64,000 bases of DNA from an uncultured delta proteobacterium. Its GTDB lineage: Bacteria; Myxococcota_A; Polyangia; Fen-1088. Position numbers and translations under genes: made by a program. Positions 28,788-33,343 of the stretch are shown in pieces. Each line of letters starts with the position of its first letter. Positions within the stretch are counted from its first letter, which is position 1. The DNA lies in contig CAVTRY010000014.1 of NCBI GenBank assembly GCA_963737265.1, positions 192,001 to 256,000 on the forward strand, read 5' to 3'. The notes under the pieces were generated by a model, which did not search any database, was not told where the DNA came from, and saw nothing but the letters and a program-made list of their open reading frames with translations.

Positions 28788-29177
28788 CTACAAGCGCAAC
28801 AGCGACAGTTTGGTGTGACGGGCTGCGAGGCGAAAGGTGGCGTCCTCGGACAGGAGGTCGGCGCCGAGGTCGAGCGCGCACTGGGCGACGTGCGCGTCGG
28901 GGGTCGAGATGGCGAGGCCCTTGGTGGCAAGCGAGCTGCGCAATCTGCCCACACGAAACCAGTGCGCCACGTCCGCCTGGCAAAGGGGAAGCGTGAGCAG
29001 GAATCCTTCGAGCTCGCCGCGCGCGCGTTCGGTCATCCGGCCGGATAGAAGCTCGGCCGCTACCACGGGCGGCAGGTACACCGTCCCGTCCTCCAGAGCG
29101 GGCTCGATGATGGCATCGCCGCCCCCGTCGCGGAAGAAGGTGATCCAGGACGAAGTGTCAATGACGAGGGCGCTCAC
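28788..29177 (-). CDS. vapC: PIN-domain toxin (VapC family)
   Basis: LVIDTSSWI, VAAELLSG, ISTPDAHVA, LLSEDATF: the conserved PIN acidic residues. Confidence 0.92.
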   Translation of the reverse strand: MSALVIDTSSWITFFRDGGGDAIIEPALEDGTVYLPPVVAAELLSGRMTERARGELEGFLLTLPLCQADVAHWFRVGRLRSSLATKGLAISTPDAHVAQCALDLGADLLSEDATFRLAARHTKLSLLRL

Positions 29178-29379
29178 GCGAGGTCTCGATATCGATGGTC
29201 AGCCGGAGCTTTCCCTTGAGAGCGCGCGCCTTGGCGGCCGCAGCCGAGCGTGCCACCCGTTCCAACCCGGCCACGAGGGTCTCGGTGATGCCCTTGCCGG
29301 TTACCTGACACGCTTCATCAACCAGCTTGACGGGGAGGTTGGCGGTTACCCGCCGTGTTCCCGATGCCGCGTGATTCAT
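29158..29379 (-). CDS. Putative VapB-like antitoxin (RHH-like)
   Basis: 73 aa, RRVTANLPVKLVDEA, overlaps the vapC start; TGTAYGTAY direct repeats immediately upstream. Confidence 0.78.
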   Translation of the reverse strand: MNHAASGTRRVTANLPVKLVDEACQVTGKGITETLVAGLERVARSAAAAKARALKGKLRLTIDIETSRERPRH

Positions 29380-29629
29380 ACCATGATACATACAACCGTA
29401 CGTACAAGCGGTCAAGGCCACGACCGGATGGGGCGCACGTCAGGGATGTGCGACGAGCCCGACCACTCGAAGCGCGTCCGGGGCGGCGGCGCGCTGGCAG
29501 CGCGACGAGGCGGCGCTCGGTGCCCATGGGATCGGCGGCTTTCGAAGCCGATCGCAGCAAGCAGATCACCATTGCGGATGGCACAGCGGCCGGCCTTGGT
29601 CCAGTCGAATCGGGCGAATCGCACAATTG

Positions 29630-29664
29630 TTGCATTAACATATCCAATATGTAATCTAAATAGT
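29630..29664 (+). promoter_or_regulatory. abiE promoter/operator, probably leaderless
   Basis: TTGCAT-16-TAATCT-7 nt-ATG; inverted repeat ACATAT-cca-ATATGT (29638-29652) in the spacer. AbiEi proteins are known to autorepress via promoter inverted repeats. Confidence 0.6.
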
Positions 29665-30300
29665 ATGAAGTTTGAGGCGCTTCTCGCGCTTGTCGCCGAC
29701 GAGCCTGTGTTCCCGTCCGCCCTGTTGCTGGCCGGAGATGTCTCATGTGCTCAGGTTCGCCTGCAACTGTCGCGCTGGGTGAAGGCTGGCCGGCTGCTAC
29801 AACTGCGACGCGGGCTCTATTCGCTGGCGCCGACCTGGCGGAAAGTGGAGGCGCATTCGTTCCTTGTGGCCAACCGGCTTCAGCGTGGATCCTATGTGAG
29901 CCTACAGTCTGCCTTGGCCTTTCACGGGGTTATACCGGAACATGTGCCGGTCGTGACCAGTGTCGGGCCAGGACGACCAGAGACGGTTCGAAATCCCTTG
30001 GGTGTCTTTCAGTTCAACCACATCGTCGGAACGCTCTGCTTTGGCTATTCCCGGACCGAGGTCGCCGCAGGGCAGTTCGCTTTCGTGGCCTTGCCGGAAA
30101 AGGCGCTGCTCGATCTCATCCACCTCACACGAGGTGCGGATTCCGAGGACTTCCTCCGAGAGCTTCGCTTGCAAAACTGGGCGGCCATCAGACCGTCGGT
30201 GTTGGTAGGACTTGCGCGACGAAGCGGTAAAGCCAAGCTGCTGCGGGCAGCCCGACTGGTAGAGCGCCTGGCCACGGTGGAGGAGGGAGAGACGCAATGA
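29665..30300 (+). CDS. abiEi: Type IV TA antitoxin, AbiEi-like
   Basis: Start MKFEALL; LSRWVKAGRLLQLRRGLY, SYVSLQSALAFHGVIPE, ALPEKALLD; ATGA overlap with the toxin gene. Confidence 0.88.
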   Translation: MKFEALLALVADEPVFPSALLLAGDVSCAQVRLQLSRWVKAGRLLQLRRGLYSLAPTWRKVEAHSFLVANRLQRGSYVSLQSALAFHGVIPEHVPVVTSVGPGRPETVRNPLGVFQFNHIVGTLCFGYSRTEVAAGQFAFVALPEKALLDLIHLTRGADSEDFLRELRLQNWAAIRPSVLVGLARRSGKAKLLRAARLVERLATVEEGETQ

Positions 30301-31103
30301 AGGATTATCTGCGGCAACTTATCGCACAAGCGGACGGCGACCTCGCTCGCGGGTGTCTGGTTCGGGAATACCTCCAAGCGCGCGTCCTCGAGTCGCTACA
30401 GGACGAGGGCGTGTTTCTACGTTGGGCTTTCGTGGGCGGCACCGCCTTGCGATTCCTCTTCGCCATTCCGAGGTTCTCGGAGGATCTCGACTTCTCCCGG
30501 ATCGCGCCTGGGGACGACCCTGGGTTCAGGAAGGCTTTGACCGCGGTGAAGCGGCTATTCGAACACGAAAGCTACCGGGTTGAGGTCAGCGTCAGCGAAC
30601 AGAAAATGGTGGCCTCGGCGTGGGTGAAGTTCCCCGGACTGCCGCACGAACTCGGTCTCTCGCCACGCGCGTCCCAGTCCCTCTCCATCAAGGTGGAAGT
30701 AGACAAGAACCCGCCCGCGGGAGCATGCATCGAAACCTCCGTCGTCCGCCGACATGTGACGGTGCACCTCTGCCATCATGACAAGTCTTCCCTTCTGTCC
30801 GGAAAGCTCCACGCCATCTTGGTCCGGCCGTGGACGAAGGGGCGCGACCTTTACGATCTCGTTTGGTATCTGGCGGATCGCACCTGGCCGCCTCCCAACC
30901 TAGACTTGCTCAACTCTGCCCTCGCGCAGACCGGCTGGAAAGGTGCCATCATGACGACAACGAATTGGCGGGAACAAATCCGCCAGCGCATGGAAACGCT
31001 CGACTGGGAACGTGCTCGCGCCGATGTGCGGCCATTTTTGGAACGGCAGCGCGACCTCGATCTGGTGAGGAACGAAATACTCGGCAAGCTGTTAAGCAGC
31101 TAA
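30297..31103 (+). CDS. abiEii: Type IV TA nucleotidyltransferase toxin, AbiEii/AbiGii family
   Basis: REYLQ, FVGGTAL, RFSEDLDF, KLHAIL, KGRDLYDL. Confidence 0.93.
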   Translation: MKDYLRQLIAQADGDLARGCLVREYLQARVLESLQDEGVFLRWAFVGGTALRFLFAIPRFSEDLDFSRIAPGDDPGFRKALTAVKRLFEHESYRVEVSVSEQKMVASAWVKFPGLPHELGLSPRASQSLSIKVEVDKNPPAGACIETSVVRRHVTVHLCHHDKSSLLSGKLHAILVRPWTKGRDLYDLVWYLADRTWPPPNLDLLNSALAQTGWKGAIMTTTNWREQIRQRMETLDWERARADVRPFLERQRDLDLVRNEILGKLLSS

Positions 31104-31330
31104 GCAAAGAGGAGGTGCTGGCGACCACGCTGGTGTCGGCCACACCGGCCAACGATGTTGGCCTGGAGGCGGGCAGTCAGGCAACACCCCTTTCAAGGTC
31201 TTGAGACGTTCGATTCTGAAGCCGGGAGCGCTTCCCAGAACGGCCATACCGGTGCGCCCCGCGGCCGCGCAGGGAGGCCGACGCGAGGCGCGGCCAGTGA
31301 GGGCAGAAGAATTCGCCTCTATACCCGTGG

Positions 31331-31504
31331 CCCCTCACCCGCCGACGCAGACGTCGTCGGCCTCTCCCCGACGAGGACGTCGGGGAGAGGCGCAGATCTA
31401 GTCCACCGCCCACACCTTGAAAGGGGGTAGCATTTAGGCGCTGGCGAAAGTCTGGGTGATGTCGGCCTCCCCGACGGGGACGTCGGGGAGAGGCGCAGAT
31501 ATAG
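31331..31504. repeat. Two tandem REP-like hairpins (CCTCACCC...CCTCTCCCC-n-GGGGAGAGG family)
   Basis: 31356-31401 GTCGGCCTCTCCCCGACGAGGACGTCGGGGAGAGGCGCAGATCTAG and 31461-31504 GTCGGCCTCCCCGACGGGGACGTCGGGGAGAGGCGCAGATATAG are near-identical. Confidence 0.75.
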
Positions 31505-31515
31505 ACGGGCCGAGT

Positions 31516-31637
31516 AGCGTTCTCGTCAGCGGATGCTGGTACCCGCAGGGGATTGCCACCGACGGTTCGAACGTGTACTGGACCGATTACGGAAATCCCG
31601 CGGTCGCCGGCCAGCAAAAGCCCGGCTCTGGAGTGGT
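31516..31637 (+). pseudogene. Fragment of a YWTD-type beta-propeller gene, interrupted by the MITE
   Basis: VLVSGCWYPQGIATDGSNVYWTDYGNP...PGSGV; continues in frame as VRKCAIG after 32225 once the element and one TSD are removed. Confidence 0.6.
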
Positions 31638-32216
31638 GGGTGCTTCCCTGAAACGGGGGCCCCAGCCGGGGGCTCGGTGAGGTAGCAACTTCTGGCGGAG
31701 TGCCGCCGAAAACGCAGATATGGAACAGCGAGGAACGGAGAAACAGAGACAGGATGACTTTACTGGGCAAATTATCGCCGCCTGCATCGAAGTCCACCGT
31801 CACCTCGGTCCCGGGCTGCTTGAGTCGGCCTACGAGCACTGCCTGGCGCGCGAGCTAGGCCTGCGTGGATTTCGCACGCAACGTCAGGTCGCGATTTCTC
31901 TGCAGTACAAAGGCATTGACCTCGACTGCGGCTATCGCCTCGACCTCATGGTGGAAGGCCGTTTGGTCGTCGAAGTCAAGGCGGTAGAGCAGTTGCTTCC
32001 TGTCCACTTGGCACAGGTCATTACCTATCTCAAGCTCCTACGACTGCCGGTGGGCCTGCTCGTCAATTTCCACGTCCCCGTACTTCGCGAGGGTCTCCGC
32101 CGCCTCGTCAACCCAACCCGTGATTCCTCTGGTCCTCCGTTCCTCCCTGTTTTTCCCTCCGATCCCACCTGCGCGGGGCGAGGTGAAGCCCCAGCCCCCA
32201 TTTCAGGGAAGCACCC
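31638..32216. mobile_element. 579-bp non-autonomous TIR element (MITE-like) carrying a GxxExxY gene
   Basis: TIRs GGGTGCTTCCCTGAAACGGGGGC (31638-31660) and GCCCCCATTTCAGGGAAGCACCC (32194-32216), 22/23 match; TSD TGGAGTGGT at 31629-31637 and 32217-32225; no transposase. Confidence 0.85.
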
Positions 32217-32298
32217 TGGAGTGGTGCGTAAGTGCGCAATCGGTGCTAGAAAAGGCTGCGCTGGCCGCCCGGATTTCGCTGCGGCATGGGGACGTTGA
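31720..32298 (+). CDS. GxxExxY protein (PD-(D/E)xK nuclease-like); conserved part ends at about 32115 and the ORF runs on through the TIR
   Basis: [64 protein letters not shown]. Confidence 0.9.
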
Positions 32299-33343
32299 GA
32301 TGCTCGAAGGCATGGGGCGTGGCCTGACGGCCGCGCGGCGTGCGCACGAGGAATCCTTCCTGAATGAGATAGGGCTCGTGCACGTATTCGAGAGTGTCGC
32401 GATCCTCGGCCAGCGCGGCAGCCAGTGACTCGATCCCGACCGGGCCGCCGTCGAAGCGCTCCACGATGGCGCGCAGAAATCGGCGGTCGCCGTCGTCGAG
32501 CCCGAGGGCATCGACGCCGAGGCGGCGAAGCGCATAGTCGGCGGCCTCGCGCGTGACGGTGCCGTCGCCGCGCACGACGGCGAAATCGTGCACCCGCCGC
32601 AGCAGGCGATTGGCGATGCGAGGCGTGCCGCGCGCGCGCCGGCCCAGCTCTTGCGCGCCCGCCTCGTCGCACGTGATGCCAAGCAGTTTGGCCGAGCGCT
32701 TGATGATGGTGCAAAGCTCGTCGGGCGCGTAGAAATCGAGGCGTTCTACGATGCCAAAGCGCGAGAGCAGCGGCGAGGTGAGCTGGCCCGTGCGCGTGGT
32801 CGCGCCCACCAAGGTGAATCGTTCGATGGGGACGGTGATGGCGCTGGCGCCAGCGCCCATGCCGGTCACGATCTCGATGTGAAAGTCCTCCATCGCGGGA
32901 TAGAGGCTTTCCTCGATGATGGGCTGCAGGCGGTGGATCTCGTCGATAAAGAGAACGTCGCCGCGCCCAAGCGAGGTGAGGATGCCGGCGAGATCGCCCT
33001 TGCGTTCGAGCGCCGGCCCCGACGTCACGCGCGCCACCGTGCCCATCTCGTGCGCGATGACGTGGGCCAGGGTCGTCTTGCCCAAGCCGGGAGGTCCGGA
33101 AAGCAGCACATGGTCGAGCGTGCCCGTGCGCTTCTTTGCCGCCGCGACGTAGACCTCCAAATTCTCCGCCACCTTGCGCTGCCCGACGAATTCCGCGAAG
33201 GTGCGCGGCCGCAGCGCGGATTCCTCGTCGCTCGATAGGGCTTGGCCACCGGTGATCTGTTCGGCCAGGCTCTCGGCCGACACGTCGGGCGCGGCCGCGA
33301 GCGGAGCCGCCGCGACACCGTCGTCGTGCCGCTTGCGTGCCAC
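32246..33343 (-). CDS. ruvB: Holliday junction branch-migration ATPase
   Basis: [53 protein letters not shown]. Confidence 0.97.

Follow-up and report, generated by a model that had tools for sequence, protein, structure and literature searches.

A transposase-less multicopy element with ISKra4-type ends carries a GxxExxY cassette bounded by periodic inverted arms

Mobile insertion cassettes (MICs) and miniature inverted-repeat transposable elements (MITEs) are units bounded by terminal inverted repeats (TIRs) that lack a transposase and sometimes carry passenger genes (e.g. PMC3913671). In the transposon families treated by Guerillot et al. 2014 (PMC3942029), the inverted repeats are reported to measure 18-39 bp and to have a terminal C, the direct repeats to be 8 or 9 bp long, and ISKra4-group members to insert, in one orientation, 13-17 bp upstream of sigmaA promoters. 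Here we describe a 579-bp element with ends of this kind and a GxxExxY gene in its interior. It lies in a 64,000-nucleotide stretch (hereafter "the window") of contig CAVTRY010000014.1, from an uncultured delta proteobacterium. The GxxExxY protein family is large and functionally uncharacterised, and its paralogs are numerous in environmental bacteria.

The explanation that we favour, with a probability of roughly 0.87, is that the locus is a composite element, in which a shell derived from an ISKra4-type insertion sequence (IS) is moved in trans and a GxxExxY cassette with family-wide inverted arms hitch-hikes inside it. The shell would keep only the two ends of an ISKra4-group (Mutator-like DDE) IS, and the transposase, supplied in trans, would make 9-bp staggered cuts and favour insertion roughly 16 bp upstream of sigma-70-type -35 boxes. 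The approximately 40 copies seen today would stem from a recent burst. A complete cassette, consisting of the gene and its own inverted arms, would have been captured by the IS derivative or have inserted into it, and such cassettes would also leave arms-only palindromic derivatives. Which transposase acted, in what order the capture took place and what the arms do are inferred. The features of the element, in window positions, are as follows.

31629..31637, no strand: left copy of the 9-bp target-site duplication (TGGAGTGGT), a direct repeat
32217..32225, no strand: right copy of the 9-bp target-site duplication (TGGAGTGGT), a direct repeat
31638..32216, plus strand: 579-bp non-autonomous element (MIC, or gene-carrying MITE), one of about 40 copies
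31638..31660, plus strand: left 23-bp TIR, ISKra4-type; metagenome contigs have this TIR on both sides of 463-aa ISKra4 transposase genes
32194..32216, minus strand: right 23-bp TIR; the right end of an autonomous IS (locus L167) matches element positions 526-579 at 92.7% identity
31678..32173 (element positions about 41 to about 536), plus strand: putatively captured type-2 GxxExxY cassette (leader, left arm, gene, right arm), found in relatives without the outer TIRs
31724..31748, plus strand: left arm of the inner inverted repeat, purine-rich periodic AACRGAG-type units, overlapping codons 2-10 of the open reading frame (ORF)
32127..32151, plus strand: right inner arm, the pyrimidine-rich complement of the left arm, with which it pairs in RNA folds
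31720..32298, plus strand: GxxExxY ORF, with the PF13366/TIGR04256 domain at 31756-32103
31438..31637, resuming at 32226-32298, plus strand: interrupted host frame, 5' part (YWTD-like repeat remnant), rejoined in silico

The two TIRs are complementary at 22 of 23 positions (96%), with ends of the form GGG...CCC, and the inner arms are complementary at 22 of 25 (88%). Both pairs of repeats, as well as the 9-bp duplication, are found just where a first-pass annotation of the bare sequence had placed them; the 11-bp duplication that it offered as an option is an artefact of a chance match of flanking bases. Its identification of the gene also proved correct, the ORF scoring 138.5 bits on PF13366 and 140.3 bits on TIGR04256 (cut-offs 22 and 35 bits, respectively), which makes it a member of the family. 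Within the element the ORF meets no stop codon, and its frame exits through the right TIR into the flank. The annotation had proposed, further, that removing the element rejoins an interrupted reading frame. When the element and one duplicate are removed in silico a 90-codon open frame does result, and it aligns across the junction to two paralogous YWTD-like repeats at C11:1306633-1307517 (E 1e-5 and 5e-5; the 25 contigs of the window's genome, G000, are labelled with C-numbers). This frame is a short remnant only, and no ortholog of it was found at the locus in 16 relatives, where only ruvB is syntenic.

A BLAST search of the genome with the element as query returned 44 segments. There are 31 full-length copies, at 92.7-100% identity, and nine that are partial or interrupted. 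Direct repeats of exactly 9 bp abut the TIRs in 29 of the 31 full-length copies, one copy has a 10-bp repeat, and in one the repeat is degraded (7/9 by eye). The 29 exact duplications represent 28 distinct sequences without a strong consensus, and the copies sit in intergenic or coding DNA. The 579-bp element is a real mobile element that was recently active, far beyond anything expected by chance. In public soil-metagenome contigs the depth of the element exceeds that of its flanks, and contigs branch into the flanks of other copies. The TIR-bounded 579-bp unit was found in this genome only, among 41 that were searched. One public RNA library yielded only fragments 90-95% similar to the element, one of them with an internal 222-nt skip, and so leaves transcription of the window element unsupported.

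Two copies of differing subfamilies stand head to tail, 9 bp apart, at C17:62354-63520, with one 9-mer on all three sides of the pair and TTGAC 16 bp downstream; the arrangement looks like two insertions at a single preferred site, and fits a strong site preference. Insertions of about 1.4 kb interrupt two other copies of the 579-bp element (C20:14118-16133 and C23:162554-164571), the one in C20 encoding a 438-aa IS4-like DDE transposase (PF01609), and two further copies bear insertions of 116 bp and 187 bp.

The GxxExxY gene is the element's only ORF, and a DDE transposase of its own is absent; for this reason the element is a non-autonomous derivative and not an IS. Its TIR, 23 bp long and ending GGG...CCC, lies within the published range of 18-39 bp with a terminal C, and the 9-bp repeats of 29 of the 31 copies agree with the published 8 or 9 bp. 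The ends are also shared with complete elements. A scan of metagenome contigs for the exact TIR identified 11, in four of which an ISKra4-type transposase gene, recognised by the ISKra4-family model NF033572, lies between two TIRs spaced 1999-2148 bp apart. Three of these contigs have the gene as an intact 463-aa ORF (241.7-244 bits); in the fourth, L171, it is split. The similarity to the L167 IS noted above covers the last 54 bp of the element, the right IS end starting at approximately element position 526.

A corresponding scan of the genome, with up to 5 mismatches allowed, matched the element copies, one unpaired site with 5 mismatches and one other TIR pair. The latter bounds a 2120-bp element, C20:66979-69098, which has a 9-bp duplication of its own, a TIR 19/23 identical to that of the window element, and a 466-aa ORF that scores 256.9 bits on NF033572 (cut-off 205); the transposase of metagenomic locus L164 is 73% identical to this protein. 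A second ORF in the C20 element (L031 2537-2962) encodes 141 aa and has no Pfam or NCBIfam match.

The insertion sites bear on a further trait of the group. TTGAC occurs exactly 16 bp beyond the right end of the element in 6 of the 31 copies (19%), and on the right-end side only, for which the genome frequency of the motif gives P of about 7e-14 in a test that scored the -35 motif, not full promoters, and a motif noticed post hoc. On the evidence of TIR identity, 9-bp duplications and promoter-proximal TTGAC bias, the shell is a non-autonomous ISKra4-group derivative. The first of two alternatives put forward in the first-pass annotation, a MITE moved in trans by an ISKra4/IS256-type enzyme and containing a captured or invading cassette, is supported by these same traits together with the existence of TIR-less cassettes in relatives.

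The cargo gene is predicted to encode a nuclease with the PD-(D/E)xK fold and acidic and lysine catalytic residues. Residues E35, D75, E85 and K87 are invariant in an alignment of 29 sequences, and the AlphaFold2 model has a pLDDT of 95.2. The best Foldseek matches, Cas4, lambda exonuclease and Hjc, are weak (E 1.2e-3 or worse) and generic for the PD-(D/E)xK superfamily, and a PDB sequence search gave no match at E up to 1. Literature searches on the family and motif names found neither a GxxExxY function nor flanking repeats in those parts of the texts that were accessible. Across species the gene evolves under purifying selection, with dN/dS ratios of 0.14 relative to G009 and 0.40 relative to G005; a comparison of this genome's two subfamilies gives 0.43.

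A full-length domain match is kept in 20 element copies. One 1-bp deletion, at alignment column 383, is shared by 8 of the 31 copies, all at different sites, and 10 of the 43 TIGR04256 matches in the genome end at profile position 89. Since frameshifted copies have spread, the nuclease gene is not needed in cis by the shell; the nuclease is the cargo of the 579-bp unit, and not its motor.

Several observations weigh against the composite explanation. None of the contigs in the public metagenome runs examined spans an empty site, and the 25-contig assembly contains no autonomous element that has the exact TIR. The C20 element differs from the window element at 4 of 23 TIR positions at each end, so that cross-mobilisation would have to be assumed, and the four metagenomic elements with the exact TIR are without clean duplications. 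The TTGAC bias is post hoc and was seen at just 6 of 31 sites, where more than 20% was taken as the criterion. Intact GxxExxY copies may, moreover, complement the frameshifted ones in trans. The driver would be either the diverged C20 element or an exact-TIR copy that has been lost or was not assembled. A 1782-bp ISKra4-like IS, with a TIR starting GGGTGGGTTGCACGGG, was considered for this role and rejected: its TIR shares no more than GGGTG with that of the element, and the identity of its transposase to the exact-TIR type is just 29.5%. This IS is itself active, with a full copy at C2:48037-49818, eight more full copies and a 939-bp partial copy (C18); 9-bp direct repeats are visible by eye at several copies, and its transposase scores 177.9 bits, below the NF033572 cut-off.

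The cassette is not confined to this shell. In G005, element positions 41-514 are present at 91% identity without TIRs and with a solo right arm before them, and G009 has two TIR-less copies at about 82% identity; in both genomes the TIR-less gene is single or low copy. G003 and G004 have at least 11 derivatives that lack the middle of the gene, positions 80-180 being followed directly by 455-536; these lie within a MITE of another kind, whose TIR is different. A Waddliaceae metagenome-assembled genome (MAG) contains four identical copies (L146, L147, L151 and L152) of a larger repeated IS, each with a complete GxxExxY cassette near one end and, on the opposite strand, a transposase that is IS630-like by eye. 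GxxExxY cassettes repeatedly end up inside other mobile elements. The sole GxxExxY gene of the window's genome that lies outside the 579-bp element, at C22:198320-198790 between comM and recA, is flanked by a periodic inverted repeat of about 44 bp.

Inverted repeats proved to be general in a survey of GxxExxY flanks, an analysis that the first-pass annotation had suggested. The sample consisted of the best 80 of 583 confirmed matches, from many phyla, and is biased towards relatives of the query motifs. The best ungapped inverted match between 5' and 3' flanks had a median score of 19.25, compared to 9.0 for mismatched locus pairs, and 42 of 78 usable loci exceeded the 95th percentile of the control. 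An upstream array and a downstream complementary array, each of at least two units, were found at 55 of the 80 loci; arrays in the opposite arrangement also occurred at 10 of the 80, some of them belonging to neighbouring cassettes. Three units are present in 44 of the 55 arm-bearing loci, spaced by 8 nt (67 cases) or 9 nt (35 cases), and the commonest are CACAGAG, CGCAGAG, CACGGAG, CGCGGAG, CGCAAAG and CACAAAG (CRCRRAG type). A stop codon precedes the right arm in 43 of the 55 loci, and in 21 of them translation covers the left arm; because the variable spacing of 8 or 9 nt shifts the reading frame, the constraint on the arms acts on nucleotides and not on the peptide. The AACRGAG-type units of the window arms are a diverged version of the CRCRRAG pattern, and the two subfamilies in this genome keep the pairing of the arms (22/25 and 23/25) despite changes on both. 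Periodic inverted arms are a family-wide hallmark of GxxExxY cassettes, and not a peculiarity of the window element.

Arms also occur without a gene. Arrays of at least three units are rare in the window's genome, where all four convergent pairs are ordered purine-then-pyrimidine and three of the four are hairpins of about 100-160 bp with a trace of the gene's 5' end. Across the genus, arms-only palindromes of about 115 bp ("minis") occur as dispersed repeats; their ends are sharp, TTTCACC...GGTGAAA, and their flanks are unrelated. The eight genus genomes with an intact GxxExxY gene gave 66, 66, 58, 54, 42, 15, 13 and 12 mini matches, and the five without it gave 3, 1, 0, 0 and 0 (threshold E 1e-6; palindromes match both strands, so that counts may be up to twice the true copy number). 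One genome, G001, where comM-recA shows no more than a deletion scar, groups in a ruvB tree as the sister of three genomes rich in minis (97/97 support). In more distant bacteria, a betaproteobacterial MAG has 139 exact arm arrays and six gene matches, an alphaproteobacterial MAG 19 arrays and one gene, and a Gemmatimonadales MAG 12 arrays and one gene, many of the arrays in these MAGs forming convergent pairs 50-120 nt apart; two further genomes from unrelated phyla have few arrays. In a phylum sample of 151 genomes, arrays and gene occurred together in 10, the gene alone in 10, arrays alone in nine (with no more than seven arrays) and neither in 122 (Fisher P 7e-6), and all seven genomes with at least eight arrays, from seven families, carry the gene. 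Arms-only palindromes are abundant only in gene-holding genomes, a co-occurrence that is a correlation among related genomes. No description of an association between gene and arms was found in literature searches on the family and motif names.

Some observations run counter to this association. In G137, with 61 arrays and one gene, the visible arm of the gene is of another unit type and its left arm was not seen, and both genes of G009 carry a second arm type. Pairs of occupied and empty sites were sought at comM-recA, at C11:175583, and in G004 versus G003; empty or decayed sites were found, with flanks too diverged or rearranged for a target duplication to be read for either cassettes or minis, and the C11:208579 locus had no informative relatives. 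At the intergenic site orthologous to C11:175583-175686, most species of the genus carry a mini of the CACAGAG type, G006 (L214 region) has one with the other arm type (AACAGGGAGG...), and the site is empty in G010 and G005, which hints that one site has been used repeatedly. At L260 (G137:C7:150380-151050), CACGGAG-type hairpin minis of about 100 nt are arranged in tandem with a period of about 155 bp.

Against this background the competing explanations of the 579-bp unit can be weighed. The second alternative of the first-pass annotation, that the nuclease takes part in spreading the unit, is not supported, eight of the 31 copies sharing a single frameshift at different sites. In its strongest form it describes a minimal transposon that mobilises itself, the GxxExxY nuclease cutting the outer TIRs and no DDE transposase being required. 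Conserved catalytic residues, purifying selection on the gene, the 20 copies with a full-length domain and the lack of an exact-TIR transposase gene in the assembly would all suit such a transposon. We nonetheless regard it as very improbable, given that the outer TIR, the 9-bp duplication and the apparent promoter-proximal targeting are ISKra4-group traits, that the frameshifted copies reached different sites, and that G005 and G009, where the gene lacks these TIRs, have only one or a few copies of it. Closer still to negligible is an isolated accident, in which one IS lost its interior and chanced to trap a gene, without any wider connection between GxxExxY genes and flanking repeats. The annotation had named this outcome as the one that would overturn its proposal, and one part of it is borne out, since the TIR does match a known IS family. 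The remainder is not: the element exists in about 40 copies, the arms recur at 55 of 80 GxxExxY loci across phyla in a strong general link, and cassettes or their remnants lie in two other mobile elements, the G003/G004 MITE and the Waddliaceae IS630-like element.

The role of the arms is a separate matter, on which two views can be set side by side. By analogy with REPIN-RAYT systems, GxxExxY genes and their arms could constitute a widespread class of compact mobile or semi-domesticated elements, in which the nuclease recognises the arms and propagates both the cassette and the minis of about 115 bp. We advance this tentatively, as a possibility short of an even chance. The recognised arms would typically be three tandem CRCRRAG units per side, inverted and ending in TTTCACC, propagation would probably pass through a hairpin or cruciform DNA intermediate, and the window element would be one mobile element riding inside another. 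Alternatively, the arms may act as RNA, in the form of a closing stem of about 24 bp around the coding region, comparable to the stems of 23S rRNA intervening sequences, that limits translation or directs RNase III processing, with no role in DNA mobility. The arms do pair in both minimum-free-energy and centroid RNA folds of the transcript, and they bracket the ORF closely, with the stop codon before the right arm in most arm-bearing loci. A similar architecture with other units is seen in genes of the four-helix-bundle family TIGR02436, a family known from rRNA intervening sequences. In the same phylum these genes have periodic inverted flanks, 19 of 26 loci exceeding the 95th percentile of the control, and their 6-8-nt units vary in sequence by locus (GTCAGAG, TCAGCGG and GGCGAAT, for example, among 30 loci, L175-L204); in the REPIN-like view they may form a sister class with periodic arms of their own. 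We consider a purely RNA role unlikely. Arm mismatches on the sense strand at 44 loci comprise 47 that are G-U compatible and 49 that are A-C, revealing no wobble bias, the CRCRRAG unit is conserved across phyla beyond the needs of a stem, and palindromes without a gene are dispersed in tens of copies.

The surroundings of the window element contain other features of note. Just upstream, at 28837-31103, is a type IV toxin-antitoxin pair, in which the AbiEii nucleotidyltransferase toxin scores 87.9 bits and the AbiEi-like antitoxin is weak (20.7 bits, under the cut-off); the AbiEii part is found elsewhere in genomes G002 and G008. Between this pair and the element, at 31185-31508, lie a REP-like palindrome pair (a 38-nt direct repeat with 14-bp perfect hairpins) and a stretch of about 240 bp. 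The latter recurs many times in relatives, e.g. G008, G004 and G009, and its end motif, CACCTTGAAAGGGG, resembles the end of a second MITE family (G003/G004). An Rfam search of 31300-32600 detected no rRNA or other family, the matches being whalefall-1 at 22 bits (cut-off 37) and a miRNA model.

The outer element is ordinary in kind, a clean and recently active gene-carrying MITE of the ISKra4 group that seems to retain the group's unusual preference for sites near promoters. The wider interest is in its cargo, through the cross-phylum tie of a nuclease family to periodic inverted repeats and palindromic minis. If the nuclease does act on the arms, the GxxExxY family would gain a function, a second enzyme class would join the few systems that maintain populations of palindromic repeats in bacterial genomes, and a class of repeats, as well as odd low-complexity protein termini, would be accounted for across many phyla. 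We know of no earlier MIC derived from an ISKra4-group IS, from a search that was not exhaustive.

Compared to described systems, the shell resembles ISKra4-group IS (p-MULT 4, Mutator-like DDE; PMC3942029) in its 23-bp TIR ending in C, its 9-bp repeats and, at 6 of 31 sites, its insertion in one orientation about 16 bp upstream of a -35-like TTGAC. It differs from them in being 579 bp long and without a transposase, and in having an unrelated nuclease cassette as its interior. With MITEs and MICs it shares TIRs, a target duplication, the absence of a transposase, a passenger gene, probable mobilisation in trans and high copy number. A strict MITE would be similarly small, TIR-bounded and multicopy with a duplication; the window element is coding, with a conserved gene, and because it carries that gene mobile insertion cassette is the better name. 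It departs from other MICs in that its passenger is itself a repeat-bounded cassette from a mobile-like family, so that the elements are nested.

Small ORFs within long inverted repeats are also characteristic of ORF-bearing 23S rRNA intervening sequences and of TIGR02436 genes. The GxxExxY cassettes studied here differ from the former in lying outside rRNA (the Rfam search was negative and the copies are intergenic or coding), and from the latter in that their arms share one unit sequence across phyla, whereas TIGR02436 arms vary by locus.

For the GxxExxY cassette family, as distinct from the outer shell, the closest likeness is to REPIN-RAYT systems (PMC3116915, PMC3337134, bioRxiv 10.1101/2022.05.22.493013). 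In both, the gene is vertically inherited in one or a few copies with inverted repeat arms on either side, tens of short palindromic doublets built from those arms are scattered over the genome, and the repeats are nearly missing from genomes without the gene, which for GxxExxY is a correlation among related genomes. The GxxExxY arm is made of three tandem 8-9-nt units and is not a REP hairpin, the link between protein and arm is putative, and the gene of G137 has an arm type unlike that of the minis in the same genome. The predicted fold of the GxxExxY enzyme is PD-(D/E)xK, in contrast to the HUH/Y1 (IS200/IS605-like) transposase of the RAYTs, and for this reason the system would be an analogue of REPIN-RAYT and not a member of it.

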